Part shown: piece after piece, positions 7,050-30,667 of the stretch
Layout of the letters: each line of letters opens with the position of its first letter
Numbering within the stretch: the first letter of the stretch is position 1
DNA from: an uncultured Candidatus Saccharibacteria bacterium
Lineage (GTDB): Bacteria > Patescibacteriota > Minisyncoccia > Minisyncoccales > MHMH01
Reading direction: 5' to 3'
DNA length: 30,667 nucleotides
Assembly: GCA_964486395.1 (NCBI GenBank)
Contig: CAZALP010000001.1
Span: forward strand, 1 to 30,667
Position numbers and translations under genes: made by a program
Notes under the pieces: model-generated
Told to the model about the DNA's origin: nothing
The model's input: only the letters and a program-made list of their open reading frames with translations
The model's database searches: none

Positions 7050-8501
7050 ATGACAAAGAAAAAGTTTTATATCTCAACTAGTATAGCTTATACTAATGCT
7101 CCTCCGCATATAGGTTATGCATTAGAGATAATCCAGGCAGATGTGATAGCTAGATATCGGCGGCTTTTGGGCGAAGATGTTTTCTTTTTGACCGGAACTG
7201 ATGAGCATGGGAGAAAGGTGGTAGAAGCAGCTAAAGAGGCAGGGAAAAGCCCTAAAGATTTTACGGACTTGCTTGCAAAAAAATTCAAAAAATTGACCGA
7301 AACTTTAAATATCTCTAATGACGATTTTATTCGCACTACCGATCAAATAAAACATTGGCCATCAGTAAGGAAAGTTTGGTTGGCATTAAGGGAAAACGGC
7401 GATATTTACAAGAAGAAATACAAGGGGTTTTATTGTGTCGGTTGCGAGGCATTTATTACAAAAAAGGATTTGGAAAGCGGTAAATGCAGAATTCACCAAA
7501 AAGAACCTGAAATAGTTGAAGAAGAAAATTATTTTTTCCGGCTTTCCAAATATTCAAAAAAGATAGAAGAGGTTATCAAAAAAGACAAAATTAGAATTAT
7601 TCCCGAGAGCCGAAAGAATGAGATGTTGAGTTTTCTCAGGCAAGGCTTGGAAGACATTAGTTTTTCTCGGCCTAGAAAAGACTTAAAGTGGGGGATACCA
7701 GTACCGGATGATAAAAGTCAGACGATATATGTCTGGGGAGACGCTTTAACCAATTATATTTCAGCTCTTGGTTATTCAAAAAATAGCAAAAAATTTAAAA
7801 AGTTTTGGCCAGCTGATGTTCATTGCATTGGCAAAGATATTCAAAAGTTCCATTGTTTGATTTGGCCGGGAATGTTGTTGTCTTTAGGTTTAGACTTGCC
7901 GAAAAATATTCTGGTTCACGGATTCATCACTGTTAATGGGCAGAAAATGTCAAAGAGCTTGGGGAATGTTATTGATCCTTTTGAATTGGTTGAGAAATAC
8001 GGAATGGATCCCGTGAGATATTTTCTCTTGCGGGAGATTCCGCCGACGGAAGATGGAGACTTTACGCGCGAAAAATTTGAGGGGCGCTATAATTCTGACT
8101 TGGCAAAAGGGCTCGGGAATTTGGTTGCCAGAGTAATAAAAATGGCGCAAATTTCTAATTTCCAATTTTTAATTTCCAATAAATTTTCAAAAACCCACTG
8201 TTCCCACACAGCCAAATTCAAAGCGGAAATAAACAAAACCTGGAAAGAATACCATCGTCTCTTTAACGAGTTTCGGTTTAATGAGGTATTAATGGCGGTT
8301 TGGGAATTGATCGGTTTTTGCGACAAATATATTGAGCAAAAGAAGCCGTGGGAAACCAAGGACAAGAAAGTTATCGGTGATTTATTGCTCGCCCTGAATC
8401 ATATTGCTGAAATGTTAAGGCCGTTTTTGCCGGAAACTTCGGAAAAAATATTGAAACAAATAAAAAATAAAAAAAGTCAGTCTTTATTTCCAAGGATTTA
8501 A
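7050..8501 (+). CDS. metG: Methionine--tRNA ligase (short form, no C-terminal tRNA-binding domain)
   Basis: YTNAPPHIGY (HIGH-like), FLTGTDEHG, knuckle CVGC...CRIH, WGIPVP, YVWGDAL and KMSKS. Confidence 0.97.
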   Translation: MTKKKFYISTSIAYTNAPPHIGYALEIIQADVIARYRRLLGEDVFFLTGTDEHGRKVVEAAKEAGKSPKDFTDLLAKKFKKLTETLNISNDDFIRTTDQIKHWPSVRKVWLALRENGDIYKKKYKGFYCVGCEAFITKKDLESGKCRIHQKEPEIVEEENYFFRLSKYSKKIEEVIKKDKIRIIPESRKNEMLSFLRQGLEDISFSRPRKDLKWGIPVPDDKSQTIYVWGDALTNYISALGYSKNSKKFKKFWPADVHCIGKDIQKFHCLIWPGMLLSLGLDLPKNILVHGFITVNGQKMSKSLGNVIDPFELVEKYGMDPVRYFLLREIPPTEDGDFTREKFEGRYNSDLAKGLGNLVARVIKMAQISNFQFLISNKFSKTHCSHTAKFKAEINKTWKEYHRLFNEFRFNEVLMAVWELIGFCDKYIEQKKPWETKDKKVIGDLLLALNHIAEMLRPFLPETSEKILKQIKNKKSQSLFPRI

Positions 8502-9409
8502 TGTTGATCGATACTCACGCGCATTTGAATTTTAGCGCTTTTAGGAACGATGTCGACGAAGTGATCCGCCGGTCTTTAGGTAATGAATTTTTTGCGAAAG
8601 CAAAAAATTACAGGAGTGGTCGGGAGAGTTGGGTATCCTCCCGCGATGGAAAACCAGCGAGCCGAAGGCGAGCGCCAGAAACCGAAGGCGTCTGGGGAGC
8701 AAAGCGGGAGCGGAACGACGTTTGGATGATTAATGTCGGCTCTCAATTGACTACCAGCAAAAGAGCTGTAAAAATCGCCGAGCAATACGAAAAAGGAGTT
8801 TATGCCGCTGTTGGCCTGCACCCCATTTATGCCCAAGAAAAATTTCAATATGAAAAGTTCAAGGAGCTGGCAAAATCAAAAAAAGTGGTAGCCATTGGAG
8901 AAATCGGCCTGGATTATGAGCCAGAATATGCCCCGTTCGCAGAAAAACAGAAGGAAGTTTTCCGTCAGCAAATGAATATGGCCATAGAATTGGACCTGCC
9001 CGTGATTTTTCACTGTCGCAAAGCGCACGATGATCTTATAGAAGTTTTGTTACAATGGAACAATAATTATACACCTGTAGATTTATTACACCGGGGAGTG
9101 GTTCATTGCTTTACCGGGAAATGGAGCCAGGCAGAAAAATTCTTAGGGATGGGGATGTATTTGGGTTTTAACGGGATAATATTTAAGCTGAATTTGGATG
9201 AAATTATCAAAAAAGTTCCTCTGGATAGAATTTTGATTGAAACCGATTGTCCTTTTTTGACCCCGCCTCAAAAAAGAGGTCGGAACGAGCCGGCCTATGT
9301 AAAATATGTGGCAGAGAAAATTGCTAAAATCAAGAATTTGGATTATAAAGAAATAGCCAAGATTACCACCCAAAATGCCAAAGAGCTGTTTAAAATTATG
9401 GAGAGATAG
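8501..9409 (+). CDS. tatD: TatD family metallo-hydrolase/DNase with an N-terminal insertion of about 44 aa
   Basis: DTHAH, GLHP, GEIGLD, FHCR, HCF, ETDCP and RNEP motifs are intact; extra segment at residues 29-72. Confidence 0.93.
   Translation: MLIDTHAHLNFSAFRNDVDEVIRRSLGNEFFAKAKNYRSGRESWVSSRDGKPASRRRAPETEGVWGAKRERNDVWMINVGSQLTTSKRAVKIAEQYEKGVYAAVGLHPIYAQEKFQYEKFKELAKSKKVVAIGEIGLDYEPEYAPFAEKQKEVFRQQMNMAIELDLPVIFHCRKAHDDLIEVLLQWNNNYTPVDLLHRGVVHCFTGKWSQAEKFLGMGMYLGFNGIIFKLNLDEIIKKVPLDRILIETDCPFLTPPQKRGRNEPAYVKYVAEKIAKIKNLDYKEIAKITTQNAKELFKIMER
8585..8716. mobile_element. In-frame 132-bp structured insertion in tatD (REP/MITE-like)
   Basis: 10-bp perfect stem with GAAA loop (8586-8609), CGGGAG/CTCCCG stem, CCAGA/TCTGG stem and CCGAAGGCG twice; the length is a multiple of 3. 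Boundaries are estimated from the TatD consensus. Confidence 0.6.
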
Positions 9410-10740: not shown

Positions 10741-10762
10741 ATTAAACGCTCGGCGATAAGAT

Positions 10763-10907
10763 TCGGAATTAGTCGCACGAAAAACCGCAGTCGCTCGTCC
10801 AGCGCGCTCGCGCTGCTCGAACCTCGGGCTCGCTCTTCTGCCAGACACTTTGGCAGAAACCACGCCCGCTCGCCCTGCGGAACGTTTTTCTTAGCGACTG
10901 ATTCCGA
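10763..10907. ncRNA. GC-rich multi-branched structured element between glyA and folD (ncRNA or REP-like; function unknown)
   Basis: 14-bp closing stem (10763-10776/10894-10907), 7-bp GAAAAAC/GTTTTTC stem, CGCAG/CTGCG stem, two inner hairpins and five GCTCG motifs. Confidence 0.5.
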
Positions 10908-10918
10908 GTTCACTAATT

Positions 10919-11691: not shown

Positions 11692-14190
<2,499 letters not shown>

Positions 14191-14196
14191 ATACAC

Positions 14197-16008
14197 ATGT
14201 GCGGCATAGTCGGCTATTTGGGTAAACAGAAAGCAGTTCCCATTTTAATGACCGGCCTCCAAAGAGAAAGCTACCGAGGATACGACTCCTCGGGTCTTGT
14301 TGTTTTTGAAAATGGTAAAGCCGTTTGTTTAAAAGCAGTAGGCAAATTAGATAAATTAGAACAAAAATTACAAGGCAGAGAGATTGCCGGCGTCCTTGGG
14401 CTCGGCCACGTGCGCTGGGCGACTCATGGCGCGGTAACCGAAGCCAACACCCATCCTCATTCAGGTTGCAAAGGCAATATTTGGTTGGTTCATAACGGCA
14501 TAATTGAGAATTACAAAGAATTAAAAGAACAACTTCAAAAAGAGGGGCATAAGTTTGCCTCAGAAACAGACACGGAAATAGTGGCCCATTTGGTGGAAAA
14601 ATATTTTCAAGGAAATTTGGAAGATGCCGTTAGAAAAGCGCTGAAGCTCATTAGGGGGGCTTACGCCTTGGCCATTATTGCTAAAGAAGATCCGGGAAAA
14701 ATAGTAGTGGCCCGTCTTTCCAGCCCGCTTTTAATCGGGGTAGGAACCAAAAATGAATATTTTGTGGCTTCCGATGCCACGGCCATCGCTCCCTATTGCA
14801 AAAAAGTGGTTAATCTTGACGATAACGAAATAGCCGTTTTGACTCCTTCAGATCTTCTTATTCTTCGGGAGAAACAGCCTGAATTATTAGAAGCGGAAGC
14901 AGGGGATGAGGGCAAAAAAGGTTACCCCCATTTCATGTTGAAAGAAATCATGGAGCAATCAGAGTCCATAGAAAATTCCCTCAAAGGAAGAGTTCTTTTG
15001 GGGTCGGGCTCTGCCAGGCTGGGAGGATTGGAATTTGTCCGAGAGAAGCTGAGGGAGATTGAAAGAATTAATATTATCGCTTGCGGCACAGCTTATTACG
15101 CTGGCCTTGTCGGCGAATACATGCTGGAAGAATATGCCGGTCTTCCCACCGAAGTAGACTTTGCATCGGAGTTTCGTTATCGCAAGCCAATTATTGATAA
15201 AAAGACGGCAGTTTTGGCTATTTCCCAATCCGGAGAAACGGCTGACACGCTTGCCGCCTTAAAAGAAATCAAGAGGAAGGGGATTTTAAGCCTGGGAATT
15301 ATCAACGCGGCGGGATCTTCTGTCTCTCGGGAAACTGACGCCGGAGTCTATAATCGGGTGGGAGCTGAAGTTGGCGTAGCTTCCACCAAGGCTTTTACTT
15401 CCCAATTGGCCGTTTTGGCCCTTTTTACCTTGTATTTGGGAAGACAAAAAGATTTGTCGGTGGTGATGGGACAAAGAATAGCAAAAGAACTGCAGCGTTT
15501 GCCCAGTTTGGTAAAAGAGGTTTTGCAAAAAGACAACCAGATTAAAAAATTGGCTGAAAAGTACAAAGACTATAACAATTTTCTTTATCTGGGCAGAAAA
15601 TATAACTATCCTATCGCTTTGGAGGGCGCCTTGAAATTGAAAGAAATTTCATATATTCACGCCGAAGGCTACGGAGCCGGGGAAATGAAGCACGGCCCCA
15701 TTGCTTTGGTTGATGATTACTTCCCGACTTTTGTAATTTGTCCGACGGATTCTGTCTACGAAAAAACTATTTCCAACATTGAAGAAATTAAAGCCAGAAA
15801 GGGTCCTTTGTTAGCTTTGGCCACGGAAGGCGACAAAGAAATCAAAAAGCTGGCAAACGACGTAATTTACATACCAAAAACCCTGGAAATGCTCACCCCG
15901 ATTTTAAGCGTAATACCTTTGCAGCTTTTCGCTTACCATATGGGGGTATTGCGCGGCTGCGATGTGGACAAGCCTCGTAATCTTGCAAAAAGCGTTACGG
16001 TAGAGTAG
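14197..16008 (+). CDS. glmS: Glutamine--fructose-6-phosphate aminotransferase
   Basis: N-terminal MCGIVG, RGYDS, GHVRWATHG, HNGIIEN, SQSGETADT and C-terminal DVDKPRNLAKSVTVE. Confidence 0.98.
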   Translation: MCGIVGYLGKQKAVPILMTGLQRESYRGYDSSGLVVFENGKAVCLKAVGKLDKLEQKLQGREIAGVLGLGHVRWATHGAVTEANTHPHSGCKGNIWLVHNGIIENYKELKEQLQKEGHKFASETDTEIVAHLVEKYFQGNLEDAVRKALKLIRGAYALAIIAKEDPGKIVVARLSSPLLIGVGTKNEYFVASDATAIAPYCKKVVNLDDNEIAVLTPSDLLILREKQPELLEAEAGDEGKKGYPHFMLKEIMEQSESIENSLKGRVLLGSGSARLGGLEFVREKLREIERINIIACGTAYYAGLVGEYMLEEYAGLPTEVDFASEFRYRKPIIDKKTAVLAISQSGETADTLAALKEIKRKGILSLGIINAAGSSVSRETDAGVYNRVGAEVGVASTKAFTSQLAVLALFTLYLGRQKDLSVVMGQRIAKELQRLPSLVKEVLQKDNQIKKLAEKYKDYNNFLYLGRKYNYPIALEGALKLKEISYIHAEGYGAGEMKHGPIALVDDYFPTFVICPTDSVYEKTISNIEEIKARKGPLLALATEGDKEIKKLANDVIYIPKTLEMLTPILSVIPLQLFAYHMGVLRGCDVDKPRNLAKSVTVE

Positions 16009-23981: not shown

Positions 23982-24450
23982 TTGGGCCGGACGATGGAAT
24001 TGGCTGGATGCTTTGGGTATTTTTTCGGCCAAATATTTAATTTTCATACTGGTAGCCCTAGTGATTTTCATTTTTTGGAGAAAACGAAAAGTTATCATCG
24101 GCACCTTTTTAGCGGCAGTTTTGGCCAAATTTGTGATTGTTGATTTGATTCGTTGGATTTGGCCCAAGGCCAGACCATTTGTTGAAAATAATGTTCATTT
24201 GCTTATCAATAAAATTAACCAATCGGCTTTTCCCTCGGGCCATGCCGCTTTTGCCTTCGCTTTATCGGCAGTTGTTTATTTTTATAATAAAAAGGCCGGC
24301 ATTTTATTTTTTGTTGCCAGCTTTTTGATTGCTGTTTCCCGAGTTTTTGTTGGCGTTCATTGGCCATCAGACATTGTGGCTGGAGCCGGAATCGGAATTT
24401 TTTCCGGCTGGCTGGTTATAAGGATTTTCAAAAAGAAAAACTCGAAATAA
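23950..24450 (+). CDS. PAP2 family phosphatase (undecaprenyl-pyrophosphate phosphatase-like)
   Basis: KARPF, FPSGHA and SRVFVGVHWPSD catalytic motifs. Confidence 0.92.
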   Translation: MDYLLFQKINSWAGRWNWLDALGIFSAKYLIFILVALVIFIFWRKRKVIIGTFLAAVLAKFVIVDLIRWIWPKARPFVENNVHLLINKINQSAFPSGHAAFAFALSAVVYFYNKKAGILFFVASFLIAVSRVFVGVHWPSDIVAGAGIGIFSGWLVIRIFKKKNSK

Positions 24451-24477
24451 CAACTATGGTCTTGATTTCGAGTTTTT
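24436..24477. repeat. 42-bp palindrome, copy 1 (terminator-like)
   Basis: 13-bp perfect arms AAAAACTCGAAAT/ATTTCGAGTTTTT overlapping the PAP2 stop codon; a second copy lies at 28618-28659. Confidence 0.85.
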
Positions 24478-24574: not shown

Positions 24575-24658
24575 TGCCGCGGGAGGGAGTTGAACCCTCA
24601 AGAGCATAAGCTCATACGATTTTGAGTCGTACGCGTATTCCAATTCCGCCACCGCGGC
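24575..24658 (-). tRNA. tRNA-Leu (anticodon CAA), CCA end not encoded
   Basis: Reverse complement folds: GCCGCGG/CCGCGGC acceptor stem, TACGA-CTCAAAA-TCGTA anticodon arm, GAGC-TTAT-GCTC variable arm, GAGGG-TTCAACT-CCCTC T arm, discriminator A followed by CAA. Confidence 0.96.
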
Positions 24659-28617: not shown

Positions 28618-28659
28618 AAAAACTCGAAATAACAACCATGGTTGCGATTTCGAGTTTTT
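28618..28659. repeat. 42-bp palindrome, copy 2 (probable topA terminator)
   Basis: Same 13-bp arms as 24436-24477, inner CAACCATGGTTG palindrome; begins in the topA stop codon and ends in a T tract on the minus strand. Confidence 0.85.
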
Positions 28660-30667
28660 ATTTTACGTAATGGCAGTTTTTGTTGGAGCAATGGGTGCCT
28701 TTTTTGGTTTCTACTAACAGAGAACCGCATTTAGGGCATTTTTCTCCAGTGGGCTTATCCCATAAGGCAAAGTCGCATTTGGGAAAACGGTTGCAGGCGT
28801 AAAAAATCTTTTTCTTTTTGGTTCTTTTTTCTACGAGTTCACCATCCTTGCATTTGGGGCATTTGATTCCCAATTTGTTTTCCGGCAGAGATTCCGTGTA
28901 TTGACATTGAGGAAATTTGGAGCAAGCATAGAACTTTCCGTATTTTCCCAAGCGAATCAGCAGGGGAGCCCCGCATTTGGGACATTTCTTTTTTGTCGGC
29001 TCTTCGGTGAATTCTTTTTTAGAAACTTCGGAGTATTTTTTCTTTAAGTTTTCAGCAAATGAGCCGTAAAAATCTTTGATGATTTTTACCCACTTCTTTT
29101 CACCCTCGGCAATTTCATCTAAATCTTCCTCCATTGTGGCTGTAAATTTCAAATCAACGATATTGGGGAAGTGTTTCACCAGCAAGTCGTTGACCACGGT
29201 GCCAATTTCCGTGGGTCGGAAATATTTCTTTTCATCTTTTTCAATATAATTTCTTTCTTGGATAGTAGAAATAATAGGGGCATAAGTGGAAGGTCGGCCG
29301 ATGCCTTCTGCCTCCAGCTTTTTAATCAGGGTGGCTTCGGTATATCTCGGAGGCGGTTGGGTAAAATGCTGAGAAGGAGCAAGTTTTAATAATTTCAAAA
29401 TCTCGTTTTTGTCCAATGACGGAAGTTCTGCTTGCTCATATTTTATTGGATAAACTTTTAAGAAACCGTCGAATTTTAAGGTTTGACCGGTGGCTCGGAA
29501 AGTGTAGTTCTTAGCATTAATATCGACTCCAATAAAATCAAAAACAGCAGGCGCCATTTGACAAGCGATGAATCTTTGCCAAATCAGTTCATAAAGGCGG
29601 TACTGATTTTGGTCTAGCTTGGCTTCTCCTTTTATCTTCTCCGGAGTTCTGTCGGCGTATGTCGGACGAATGGCTTCGTGCGCTTCCTGGGCTCTGCCTT
29701 TGGCTTTGTATTTCCTGAATTGGTGGTAATTTTGGCCGTAGTTTTCGATAATGAATTTTTTAGCAGTCCCCAAAGCCAAACCGGAAAGATTGAGAGAGTC
29801 GGTCCTGTGATAAGTCGTTAGCCCCATTTCATAGAGTTGCTGGGCTGTTCGCATTGTAAATTTGGCCGGCCACCTTAATTTTCTCCAGGAATCCTGCTGT
29901 AAAGTTGAAGTGGTGAAGGGGGGAAATGGATTCTTCCGTGTTTCTTTCTTTTCCACTTCAGCTACTCGATATTCAGCTTCTTTTAAATCATTGACGATTT
30001 TTTCTGCTTCTTTTTTGTTTTTTATTTCCAGTTTATCTAAAATCTTGCCGCCTTTCTTGGTTAATGTTGCCTCAAAGGAAGGAGTTTTACCTGAGTTAAT
30101 TTTTTCCAGTAGAGCGGTAATGCTCCAATATTCTTGGGGAACGAATTTTTTTATTTCTCTTTCCCTTTCCACTACCAGTCTGACTGCTACCGACTGCACT
30201 CTTCCTGCCGACAGTCCCCTGGCCACTTTTTTCCACAAAAATGGGGAAAGCTTGTAGCCGACGATTCTGTCCAGTACTCTTCTGGCCTGCTGGGCGTCAA
30301 CCAACTTCATATCTATCTTTCTTGGATTTTGCAGGGCCTCTTCTATGGCTTGTTTGGTAATTTCGTGAAAGGCAATTCTTTGATATGGTTTTTGTCCGTT
30401 TAGGCCGAGAACTTGAGATAAATGCCAAGCAATGGCTTCTCCTTCTCTGTCTTCATCCGTAGCTAAAATAGTCAAATCTGCTCTTTGAGCGTTTTCAGCC
30501 AACAACTGAATTACCTTTTTTGATTTAAGAGGAATTACGTATTTAGGCTTGAAATCGTTTTCAATATCCACTCCCAGTTCGTCTTTAGGCAGATCCCTAA
30601 CATGCCCATAGCAAGAAAGGACCTGATAATTCGGCCCTAAAAATCTTTTTATGGTATTTCCCTTAGT
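28658..30667 (-). CDS. topA: DNA topoisomerase I (type IA) with C-terminal zinc ribbons, 5'-partial
   Basis: The frame is open to the window end (…YGHVRDLP…). TOPRIM ATDEDREGE, SAGRVQS, catalytic TYHRTDS, AHEAIRPT, GIGRPST and three C4 ribbons. Confidence 0.97.
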   Translation of the reverse strand, partial: TKGNTIKRFLGPNYQVLSCYGHVRDLPKDELGVDIENDFKPKYVIPLKSKKVIQLLAENAQRADLTILATDEDREGEAIAWHLSQVLGLNGQKPYQRIAFHEITKQAIEEALQNPRKIDMKLVDAQQARRVLDRIVGYKLSPFLWKKVARGLSAGRVQSVAVRLVVEREREIKKFVPQEYWSITALLEKINSGKTPSFEATLTKKGGKILDKLEIKNKKEAEKIVNDLKEAEYRVAEVEKKETRKNPFPPFTTSTLQQDSWRKLRWPAKFTMRTAQQLYEMGLTTYHRTDSLNLSGLALGTAKKFIIENYGQNYHQFRKYKAKGRAQEAHEAIRPTYADRTPEKIKGEAKLDQNQYRLYELIWQRFIACQMAPAVFDFIGVDINAKNYTFRATGQTLKFDGFLKVYPIKYEQAELPSLDKNEILKLLKLAPSQHFTQPPPRYTEATLIKKLEAEGIGRPSTYAPIISTIQERNYIEKDEKKYFRPTEIGTVVNDLLVKHFPNIVDLKFTATMEEDLDEIAEGEKKWVKIIKDFYGSFAENLKKKYSEVSKKEFTEEPTKKKCPKCGAPLLIRLGKYGKFYACSKFPQCQYTESLPENKLGIKCPKCKDGELVEKRTKKKKIFYACNRFPKCDFALWDKPTGEKCPKCGSLLVETKKGTHCSNKNCHYVK

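Follow-up and report, generated by a model that had tools for sequence, protein, structure and literature searches.

A 132-nt in-frame insert in tatD probably belongs to a multi-copy family of structured, GC-rich elements in Patescibacteria that is apparently undescribed

The window (the whole stretch of 30,667 nt of DNA that was analysed) encodes a TatD-family metal-dependent hydrolase at positions 8501-9409 of the + strand. The product of this tatD gene matches Pfam PF01026 with E = 1.4e-78, and the match covers residues 3-298. Within the gene, 132 nt at 8585-8716 (+ strand) form 44 codons that are in frame and free of stops, and the surrounding open reading frame reads RRSLGN|EFFAKAKNYRSGRESWVSSRDGKPASRRRAPETEGVWGAKRERN|DVWMINVG. 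An alternative placement of the insert lies 2-5 nt to the right. The GC content of the insert is 56% vs 41.6% for the window. Stop codons are depleted in it, with 5 of 6 frames open (p = 0.0013, shuffles); frame 0 was open in 14% of composition-preserving shuffles.

When 25 TatD sequences were aligned, the insert was carried only by P0001 (99% identical) and P0002 (70%) besides the window. The remaining 22 orthologues read RRSL-x-N|DVWMINVG with no gap. The 132 extra bases recognized in the initial annotation are therefore an insertion, lacking in 22 of the 24 other aligned orthologues. Empty-site DNA (n = 4) reads ...GATAATGATGTTTGG.... A relative at ~80% nucleotide identity from the same metagenomes (runs X3 and X4) is without exactly 132 nt; its contig skips 188 nt and has 56 nt in between. 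An assembly chimera is ruled out, since the same junctions recur in L002, an ENA assembly made independently, and in L001, the 70%-identity relative from JGI. In two diverged tatD lineages the insert (132 and 165 nt) is a multiple of 3 in length and contains no stop.

The junctions had been described as near-duplicates, AATGA versus AACGA. This resemblance is limited to the window copy and is not supported as a target-site duplication. Because the L001 insert ends ...GGAGCGA|CGTTTGG, only GA(C) is common to its end and the target. Judged by the other copies, the 3' end of the element is GAC (8717-8719), which lets the boundaries slide by 2-5 nt.

The metal ligands of TatD are intact, as had been proposed: H6, H8, H171, H202 and D249 are invariant in the 25-sequence alignment, and E134 is kept in at least 90% of its sequences. 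AlphaFold gave pLDDT below 50 at residues 37-72, between helix H15-26 and strand E76-78, and a confident, intact barrel around them. The model predicts that the insert is a disordered loop joining helix 1 to strand 2 in an otherwise intact barrel, and it places this loop on the non-catalytic (alpha-beta loop) face.

We compared conservation of the insert with that of the rest of the gene. Between the window and L001, identity in the insert is 0.856 over all nucleotides, 0.864 at third codon positions and 0.75 at the amino-acid level. The corresponding values for the remainder of tatD are 0.711, 0.451 and 0.74. These identities indicate that the insert is conserved at the nucleotide rather than the codon level and is not a lineage-specific peptide.

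All of the stems named earlier are present in the insert, namely AATTTTTTGC-GAAA-GCAAAAAATT, CGGGAG/CTCCCG (within 8621-8643) and CCAGA/TCTGG (within 8675-8695), as are the four GAGC motifs and the repeated motif CCGAAGG (at 8662 and 8682). The first of these stems, a 5' hairpin at 8586-8609, appears in all fold predictions, and L001 has kept it. At its tip stands GCGAAAGC (8594-8601), a canonical DNA mini-hairpin sequence. In L022, an intergenic copy, another hairpin, GTATCGGAATTT-CAAT-AAATTCCGATAC, takes the same place directly 5' of the family core. The DNA mini-hairpin motif (GCGAAGC / GCGAAAGC / CCGAAGG) has been described (PMC13037366), and by sequence it is represented by the tip and the two CCGAAGG in the window and by GCGAAGC in other copies. 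Altogether, C-GAA-G mini-hairpin sequences number 3 in the window copy and 3-5 in other copies.

The family core occupies 8610-8719 of the window, and its parts, like the 5' hairpin, are given on the + strand. It opens with a conserved 5' junction, ACAGGAGTGGT (8610-8620; family consensus ACAGAGGGGGT, alignments A3 and A4). Helix P2, CGGGAGAGT-TGGGT-ATCCTCCCG (8621-8643), has one A.C mismatch and one G.U pair in the window and is a flawless 9-bp helix in L001 and L008. Across 8 copies, 4 of its 9 pairs are changed on both sides, and 98.6% of cells are paired vs 36-61% when P2 is slid by 1-3 columns. The next segment is a conserved single-stranded block, CGATGGAAAACCAG (8644-8657; consensus TGGTGGAAAAACAG, alignment A4), in which all other strains in X1-X4 have the consensus T at 8644 and G at 8646. 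Variable hairpin V1 (8658-8674) contains a GCC-GAA-GGC mini-hairpin at 8661-8669. In other copies this position holds 7 to ~45 nt, and the long forms resemble hairpins between duplicated GCGAAGC. Helix P4, CCAGAAACC-GAA-GGCGTCTGG (8675-8695), is an invariant block in all copies, partly through ascertainment because P4 served as a search pattern; the window has C at 8688 vs T in other copies, which breaks one A-T pair. The 3' tail, GGAGCAAAGCGGGAGCGGAACGAC (8696-8719), corresponds to a family tail of GGAGCG, variable hairpins and AGCGAC, and the GAC at its end is also the Asp codon of DVWMINVG. Both V1 and V2 are hairpins nested within hairpins.

The window copy departs from the subfamily consensus at four positions, two of which break pairs, suggesting that it is now decaying. 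As a single-sequence + strand RNA, the insert folds unexceptionally (z = -1.1); folded as DNA, it gives z = -2.9. What supports the structure is how the copies compare with one another, and not the folding energy.

Outside the window, the core was found in at least 11 other genomic contexts on Parcubacteria/Paceibacterota-type contigs, with host genes assigned by Pfam and ARAGORN. It lies in frame inside dnaG, which reads it in the same frame as tatD, and just past the 3' ends of rpmJ, rpmA, rpsI, fusA, gyrB, a PBP gene and tRNA-Asn. Further copies lie in intergenic spacers. Core matches came from 11 metagenome loci and, among species-representative genomes, from 4 real matches, two of them within one Parcubacteria MAG; translated searches added more copies. 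Copies within open reading frames are a minority (~2 of 12 contexts), the orientation is near-uniformly sense relative to the host gene, and the copies in L010 and L003 are circularly permuted. Copy number is low, at ~4-5 per genome by depth and with a handful of exact-pattern matches in very large collections. In X1 and X2, which like X3 and X4 come from hydrothermal-vent and sediment communities, the core showed loose ends and its depth was 3-4x, with depths comparable to those of the window's own contigs.

The family model R1, which has the window copy among its 8 building sequences, scores that copy at 97.7 bits (E = 3e-20). When the window and 25 loci were scanned with R1, no further diverged copy was found, leaving one family member in the window. 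Viral contigs scanned with the core pattern gave no match. Rfam 15 gave no gathering-score match in the window, and none at E <= 10 on 8480-8820 or overlapping the element in L013, L012 and L003. A short-peptide search with the 44-residue insert peptide returned no candidates, in an index whose word size limits such short queries. Among representative proteins, HMMER with the frame-b peptide gave one match only, suggesting that, at the protein level, the element is either uncommon or concealed. A 21-mer match in L016 (Riflebacteria) was set aside as chance, lying inside a coding region that encodes ETEGVWGG.

The insert is thus one copy of a structured, GC-rich element that occurs many times in Patescibacteria and is apparently undescribed. 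The initial annotation had proposed a non-autonomous element inserted in frame in a TIM-barrel loop, and the multi-copy core, the empty sites, the non-coding-like evolution and the AlphaFold loop all favour that proposal. We consider it likely that the insert is a non-autonomous structured mobile element that was inserted in frame and is translated through. Its relatives probably make up a family of non-coding, GC-rich structured repeats of ~100-165 nt that spreads inside genomes of Patescibacteria (Parcubacteria/Paceibacterota-type) and from one genome to another, a mobility that we read from the distribution of the copies.

At gene 3' ends, copies share a layout in which an intact gene end is followed by the element and then by a duplicate of the gene end (18-87 nt). 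An inverted arm of 10-18 nt pairs with the start of the duplicate. This layout was measured in 7 protein-gene loci, with duplications of 18, 49 and 75-87 nt, and is also present at tRNA-Asn, where the duplicate begins in the T-loop and stops at the tRNA 3' end. The unit between the repeats (core, spacer and arm) spans 113-186 nt in the seven loci and ~180 nt at tRNA-Asn. The direct repeats run from the insertion point to the gene end, and therefore the gene stays intact. At protein-gene 3' ends the gene end and stop lie upstream of the element, which is thus outside the reading frame. The tatD copy of the window has no gene-end duplication. Unlike in the 3'-end copies, its 5' arm is unpaired with the tatD flank, so the two types may not share a mechanism.

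Two other origins of the duplicated ends were considered. A diversity-generating retroelement (DGR, with template and variable repeats) or a retron was rejected, since differences between the copies are not adenine-specific and are mostly synonymous or absent, and there is no adjacent reverse transcriptase gene. A stop-codon-coupled translational origin of the duplication boundary became less likely in view of the tRNA-Asn case and the short intergenic spacers.

Rickettsia palindromic elements (RPEs) are ~100-150 nt long and lie in frame in housekeeping genes, in surface loops (PMC10969869). Like RPEs, the present family comprises non-autonomous structured repeats of reduced, AT-rich genomes that keep the frame open and give fold-compatible loops. 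It is likewise a short, structured, multi-copy repeat that sits in frame in unrelated reading frames (tatD and dnaG). Unlike RPEs, it occurs in Patescibacteria (Parcubacteria/Paceibacterota-type MAGs) and not in Rickettsiales, is low-copy, and, in place of a simple palindrome, combines several helices and invariant unpaired blocks in its core with a separate 5' hairpin. The likeness concerns shared features, and given these hosts we do not claim RPE membership. Most of the present copies, again unlike RPEs, stand behind gene ends with an 18-87 nt duplication and an inverted arm, an arrangement that to our knowledge has not been described for RPEs.

In fungal mitochondria, the hairpins of GC clusters, double-hairpin elements and byp elements nest, shuffle and enter coding regions, and these elements pass from lineage to lineage when their conserved flanks recombine homologously (PMC4478555). 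The present family similarly consists of GC-rich hairpin modules in AT-rich genomes that nest, merge, shuffle and enter coding regions, and it may travel between lineages by the same kind of recombination. The fungal clusters, in contrast, are organellar, mostly 30-50 nt long and flanked by AG/ACT repeats. Byp elements also differ in being skipped by the ribosome, whereas the evidence for the tatD insert favours read-through.

The 3'-end copies resemble tyrosine-integrase islands and prophages, which target tRNA and protein genes at their 3' ends, in that direct repeats bracket the element at rpmJ, rpmA, rpsI, fusA, gyrB, PBP and tRNA-Asn. Repeats of this attL/attR type are found at 7 protein-gene loci and at tRNA-Asn, but not at the tatD copy. 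Unlike integrative elements, the present element is only 100-165 nt long (~150-300 nt with spacer, arm and duplicate), is without an integrase open reading frame or a recognisable core-type site, and holds an inverted copy of the repeat start. Like MITEs and REP/REPIN sequences, the family is made of small, dispersed, structured units that encode nothing and are presumably mobilised in trans. However, in the copies compared it has no terminal inverted repeats, its ends being ACAG... and ...GCGAC (ACAGAGG... / ...GAGCGAC in the family, GAATTTTTTGC... / ...GGAACGAC in the window). Long inverted repeats occur only as the 5' hairpin or between the arm and the adjoining target. It also differs in lying inside genes as well and in having no conserved, fixed-length target-site duplication, with just GA shared in L001 and 18, 49 or 75-87 nt in other copies. 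In the loci fetched, no transposase, integrase or reverse transcriptase lies beside any copy, and no related autonomous IS or RAYT gene was seen. By analogy, the layout recalls guide pairing and reverse splicing of group I introns: 10-18 nt next to the 5' side of the element pair with the target that is joined to its 3' end, nearly all copies are in sense orientation, and abundant RNAs are the targets. Unlike such introns, the element has no group I/II core (Rfam), is far too small and shows no evident splicing, and the guide of the tatD copy is unmatched to its target.

How such copies might move can be outlined in conditional terms, with less confidence than the mobile origin itself. The moving unit could perhaps be a 5' hairpin (X-loop-rcX) plus the core, and the 3' end of the core (GAC, by microhomology) might join the target. 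At gene 3' ends, the "loop" would hold a replacement for the target 3' end, as in integrative elements at tRNA genes. A small circular or snap-back single-stranded intermediate would integrate by homology or microhomology. The intermediate could be DNA because of the C-GAA-G mini-hairpins, or RNA plus cDNA because nearly all copies are in sense orientation and the arm is guide-like, and an enzyme, if any, would work in trans. The family as a whole could then be a miniature enzyme-less integrative element, trans-mobilised or self-catalysed, whose short antisense arm aims a structured, single-stranded core, whose 3' end joins a target in the sense strand of abundant genes or RNAs and which carries a replacement 3' end. 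We regard this as possible though doubtful. If true, essential genes and tRNAs would survive insertion thanks to the replacement 3' end, and the circular or snap-back intermediate would have left its traces in the circularly permuted copies and in those made of hairpin plus core (tatD, L022).

The mobile origin of the insert has to be weighed against an ordinary indel, fixed as protein sequence, by which a TatD loop expanded in particular lineages. Such an expansion would account for an in-frame, stop-free insert at the same site in two tatD lineages, and other TatD orthologues have loop insertions too. However, those insertions are themselves GC-rich hairpins, different ones in the three other orthologues examined. 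The same 100-nt core also recurs in dnaG, behind seven other genes and in spacers, and third codon positions of the insert are no less conserved than first and second. Contamination or assembly artefacts among the copies would revive the loop expansion, but four independent assemblies of the rpmJ locus counter this, and we find such an expansion hardly credible. A domesticated cis-acting signal, either for single-stranded DNA priming or replication restart or as an mRNA 3' stabiliser, would make the tatD copy an accident. Its C-GAA-G mini-hairpins would be like those of G4-type and ssiA priming signals, most copies follow closely behind highly expressed essential genes and share their orientation, and the unpaired blocks are invariant. 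Nevertheless, the family is patchy among close relatives (the empty tatD site; L001 glyA-folD without the spacer), and the in-frame genic and decaying copies resemble parasitic behaviour, which makes a domesticated signal unlikely.

If the mobile element in tatD is retained, it would be transcribed and translated through as a 44-residue disordered loop that TatD tolerates. It could instead be removed, either from the RNA by an unrecognised small ribozyme or intron or by ribosomes that bypass it, going from AAT (8582-8584) to AAC (8714-8716), and either route would restore ...RRSLGN|DVWMINVG. Synonymous Asn codons do flank the insert, a strong hairpin begins 2 nt past the first, and the core is ribozyme-like in its conserved junctions, covarying helix and circular permutation. 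In yeast mitochondria, GC-rich mobile hairpins are reportedly bypassed (Lang et al. 2014, as cited in PMC4478555). However, L001 has AGC, which is not an Asn codon, ahead of GAC. The stop-free 132 and 165 nt and the same-frame dnaG copy argue against skipping because neither would be needed if the element were skipped. Relative to bypass of the T4 gene 60 or mitochondrial byp type, the flanks are AAT...AAC in the window and AAT...AGC in L001 around a frame without stops, the take-off codon is followed by GAA with no stop or rare codon after it, and 132 nt far exceeds known bypass gaps. Rfam gave no ribozyme or intron match at E <= 10, and a self-removing element would not need the host's own gene end and stop upstream of it. 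The initial annotation saw no group I/II intron or intein signature, which the Rfam negatives and the insert termini bear out: the insert has 44 residues, a Glu start and Arg-Asn followed by Asp, vs at least ~130 residues, an N-terminal Cys/Ser and a C-terminal His-Asn followed by Cys/Ser/Thr in an intein. We judge removal by either route very improbable.

On the reading that the insert is a mobile element translated in place, selfish DNA, and not protein adaptation, can underlie short GC-rich "loops" that lie in frame in proteins of Patescibacteria. Such inserts would swell apparent protein novelty in these reduced genomes, and RPE-like life inside essential open reading frames would exist in the Candidate Phyla Radiation too. 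The family would combine it with an unusual second strategy, residing beside the duplicated end of essential or tRNA genes with no integrase. With its unpaired conserved blocks, covarying helix and permuted forms, the core is a candidate new structured single-stranded DNA or RNA motif.

Other regions of the window were also considered. A GC peak at 14353-14486 proved to be conserved glmS coding sequence, and an inverted match between 8181-8222 and 12392-12433 was judged chance from the estimated number expected in a 30-kb window. The glyA-folD spacer holds a second, different GC-rich structured element at 10763-10907, with a 14-bp closing stem, a GC content of 0.69 and DNA fold z scores of -4.6 and -5.4 on the two strands. 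In L001, which is without this spacer, glyA and folD overlap. The glyA-folD element is separate from the tatD insert but is the same kind of object, and another copy of it lies in X2 in a different context, nested in a loop of the first family.

We found all of the stems and motifs that the initial annotation had listed for an insert of 44 extra codons (8585-8716, GC 56%, in a window of 41.6% GC) in tatD. The gene (8501-9409) encodes a full-length TatD hydrolase (Pfam PF01026, E = 1.4e-78), and the insert lies between RRSLGN and DVWMINVG. By protein comparison, the nearest relatives of the window proteins are Parcubacteria/Nealsonbacteria-type MAGs. Among 25 close orthologues that we aligned, only P0001 (99% identical) and P0002 (70%) carry the insert. 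The DNA of four insert-free orthologues is uninterrupted across the site (...GATAATGATGTTTGG...), and in two metagenomes that also hold the window, contigs of a relative of ~80% nucleotide identity skip exactly 132 nt there. Because the same junctions recur in L002, an independent ENA assembly, and in L001, a relative from JGI, the assembly chimera that had been raised as a possible refutation is excluded. The AATGA/AACGA junction repeat proposed earlier is not conserved in L001. Logan contigs from all four metagenome runs (X1-X4) break at a perfect A/T hairpin, where depth falls to 0 (8564-8587) or below 1 (8588-8611). Elements of this family may therefore systematically fragment short-read graph assemblies, in which case copies may be under-represented in MAGs.

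The insert does not evolve like the gene around it. When comparing the window to L001, tatD outside the insert is 71% identical, with third positions at 45%, and the insert is 86% identical both overall and at third positions. Amino-acid identity is equal in the two parts (75% in the insert, 74% in the rest of tatD). On this comparison, the insert is not ordinary coding sequence. At 165 nt, the L001 insert is likewise divisible by three; it has an additional 33-nt GCCCC-GAAG-GGGC hairpin. Stop codons are absent from five of the six frames of the window insert (shuffling test, P = 0.0013); considering only frame 0, 14% of the shuffled sequences are open.

In the four metagenomes, other Logan contigs match 8610-8706 at 80% likeness and then continue into unrelated sequence. 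The tatD insert is a copy of a dispersed family. We searched for other copies with a 21-nt core pattern, which gave 11 loci in JGI metagenome contigs and four real loci in species-representative genomes (two in a single Parcubacteria MAG, one in a Paceibacterota MAG and one in a bin labelled Saccharibacteria). A fifth species-representative match (L016 374-394, Riflebacteria) is a chance match inside a coding region encoding ...ETEGVWGG..., an example of why single-pattern matches need the remainder of the core to be present too. Translated searches added L022, L026 and L027. A covariance model (R1) built from eight copies, including the window copy, scores that copy at 97.7 bits and detects no second family member in the window. 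No form of the element matched Rfam, and our literature search returned no description of it in the Candidate Phyla Radiation.

The copies in tatD and dnaG are both in frame, giving ...PETEGVWG.... Elsewhere, the element lies directly beyond the 3' ends of rpmJ, rpmA, rpsI, gyrB, a PBP transpeptidase gene, tRNA-Asn and fusA, the last at one site in two lineages, and in spacers downstream of ftsW and pth. Its orientation is that of the adjacent gene at every locus except the pth-downstream spacer. The rpmA locus (L008) is present in run X1 at 100% identity and at a depth similar to that of the window's own contigs. Core depth in X1 is 3-4x that of these contigs, and there are at least five distinct core flanks across X1 and X2; together these data suggest that the window's genome or close co-resident genomes contain some 4-5 copies.

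Alignments of element copies (A3 and A4) gave the order of the core from 5' to 3': the 5' junction (ACAGAGGGGGT), helix P2 (CGGGGAGAT-TGGGT-ATCTCCCCG), an invariant unpaired block (TGGTGGAAAAACAG), a variable hairpin (V1, 7 to about 45 nt), helix P4 (CCAGAAACC-GAA-GGTGTCTGG), and a 3' part of GGAGCG, variable hairpin(s) V2 and AGCGAC. In P2, 4/9 pairs are changed on both sides and 98.6% are paired, compared with 36-61% in registers slid by 1-3 columns. P4 is invariant among copies, in part by ascertainment, as it had served as search pattern. Each copy has 3-5 C-GAA-G hairpins (GCGAAGC, CCGAAGG), which in the window copy are GCGAAAGC, GCCGAAGGC and ACCGAAGGC. In DNA form, they correspond to the "extraordinarily stable mini-hairpins" that have been reported at signals for single-strand priming (PMC13037366). 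Long V1 forms (L005, L007, L012) resemble a GCGAAGC mini-hairpin interrupted by a small hairpin, so that GCGAAGC stands on both sides (GCGAAGC-CAAGTCAGACTTG-GCGAAGC in L007). The copies in dnaG (L010) and after rpsI (L003) are both circularly permuted: P2 is an open, closing helix, and sequence 3' of P4 leads directly into GGGGGTC-P2.

At seven protein-gene loci, the order is gene body, intact gene 3' end with stop codon (T1), a 0-20 nt spacer, an arm, 1-2 nt, a core ending ...GAGCGAC, a duplicate of the gene 3' end (T2) and native downstream sequence. The arm matches the start of T in reverse complement; it measures 10-18 nt at five of the seven loci, and its pairing is only fragmentary at PBP and rpsI. 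T is 87, 78, 79-82, 49, 79, 75 and 18 nt long, and ends 0-6 nt beyond the stop codon; T2 starts 0-1 nt beyond the core. No differences separate T1 from T2 in rpmA or in the L018 fusA, indicating that these duplications are young. T1 and T2 match at 73/87 positions in gyrB and 67/78 in rpmJ, and the differences are mainly synonymous, suggesting that one of the two copies derived from another lineage's orthologue. In six cases (three read directly as ORFs, three by eye), leaving out rpsI, where the duplicate is too short to place, T2 starts on a codon boundary directly after the element's last codon, GAC in five and ACG in L018. The layout is the same at tRNA-Asn (L026 2487-2760), where the intact tRNA (2487-2559) is followed by spacer, arm, core and duplicate. 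This arm (GGATTCGAACCT) is complementary to the T-arm of the tRNA, and the duplicate (GAATCCTGCCTCCGGAGCA) is its last ~20 nt, ending exactly at the tRNA 3' end. The rpmJ locus is contained in four independent assemblies and the PBP locus in three, and Logan contigs reproduce both rpmA junctions. Downstream of T2 at rpmJ, L006 and L017 have a module (GCCAAGCCAGACTTGGC) near-identical to that in the long V1 forms, with CTTCGC/GCTTCGC flanks and in opposite orientation.

In the window copy, the target is not duplicated, and a closed hairpin (AATTTTTTGC-GAAA-GCAAAAAATT) lies directly 5' of the core. The layout is the same in intergenic copy L022, where the hairpin is of unrelated sequence. In one unifying view, the element would be X-loop-rcX plus core, joined to its target via the core's 3' GAC; the "loop" of gene-end copies would contain T1, and in tatD and gyrB the target's own Asp codon coincides with the core's GAC, a microhomology. 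Compared with L008, L001 and the other strains in X1-X4, which are its nearest relatives in the subfamily, the window copy carries four derived changes: two (8627/8628 and 8688) disrupt pairs in P2 and P4, and two (8644 and 8646) affect conserved unpaired bases. The copy appears to be decaying.

With the orthologue alignment as input, AlphaFold gave a confident TatD barrel, with the insert between helix 15-26 and strand 76-78. Its start is modelled as a short helical extension (residues 28-36), and pLDDT is <50 for residues 37-72. As a general rule, (beta/alpha)8 barrels have their catalytic beta-to-alpha loops on one face and their alpha-to-beta loops on the other. All TatD metal ligands are conserved in the orthologue alignment. 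Translation through the element as a tolerated TatD loop would fit its multiple-of-three, stop-free state in two lineages, the use of the same frame by the dnaG copy, and the position of protein-gene 3'-end copies, which follow the gene's own end and stop codon and are outside the reading frame.

From the distribution, the empty sites and the permuted forms, we infer that the element moves via a small single-stranded intermediate, circular or snap-back, which uses homology or microhomology to integrate. This intermediate may be DNA, as the mini-hairpin motifs and their likeness to priming signals would favor, or it may be RNA plus cDNA, which is favored by the near-uniform sense orientation, by targets that are abundant RNAs, a tRNA included, by the coincidence of a duplication boundary with the tRNA 3' end, and by an arm that behaves like an internal guide. 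No enzyme gene is linked to any element copy. Rickettsia palindromic elements (PMC10969869) and mitochondrial GC clusters (PMC4478555) are the closest systems to the tatD copy in behaviour. The gene-end copies are similar in behaviour to the integrase-borne islands of tRNA genes, but are ~1% of their size and have no integrase. As a selfish structured repeat that resides in frame in an ORF, the tatD copy is of a kind already known; the family-level architecture may be more novel.

The glyA-folD spacer (10741-10918) holds a second GC-rich (0.69) structured element (10763-10907), unrelated to the tatD insert and undetected by R1. Its interior is branched and is closed by a 14-bp stem (TTCGGAATTAGTCGC/GCGACTGATTCCGA); folded as DNA, the two strands gave z = -4.6 and -5.4. 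L001, where glyA and folD overlap, lacks this element. A further copy on an X2 contig has flanks (GGAAAACAGCGAGCC...) resembling the V1 loop of the first family, and looks as if it would be nested in such an element. Three further TatD orthologues that we examined have different small GC-rich hairpin inserts, in frame and at other loops: a 69-nt insert of GC 0.64 with paired ends that form an imperfect inverted repeat of roughly 13 bp (L019 3430-3498), ATGAGAGC-GAA-GCTCTCAT (L020 1995-2048), and GCGAAGG plus GAAGAGAC...GTTTCTTC (L021 3541-3588). Together with the glyA-folD element, these inserts indicate that structured inserts are a general phenomenon in the lineage.

Short inserts are also present in TatD orthologues P0055, P0053, P0063, P0076, P0056 and P0105. 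In the window, a 42-47 nt palindrome (AAAAACTCGAAATAACAAC(T/C)ATGG...ATTTCGAGTTTTT) occurs twice, at 24431-24477 and 28618-28664; the two copies are 85-90% alike and look like terminators, and one is near a tRNA gene (24575-24658). The 3' part of metG has an AT-rich repetitive stretch (8150-8230, aatttccaatttttaatttccaataaatttt) encoding ISNFQFLISNKFSK..., which may be another small insertion; MetG is 483 aa long in the window and 460-474 aa in relatives L001 and L023.
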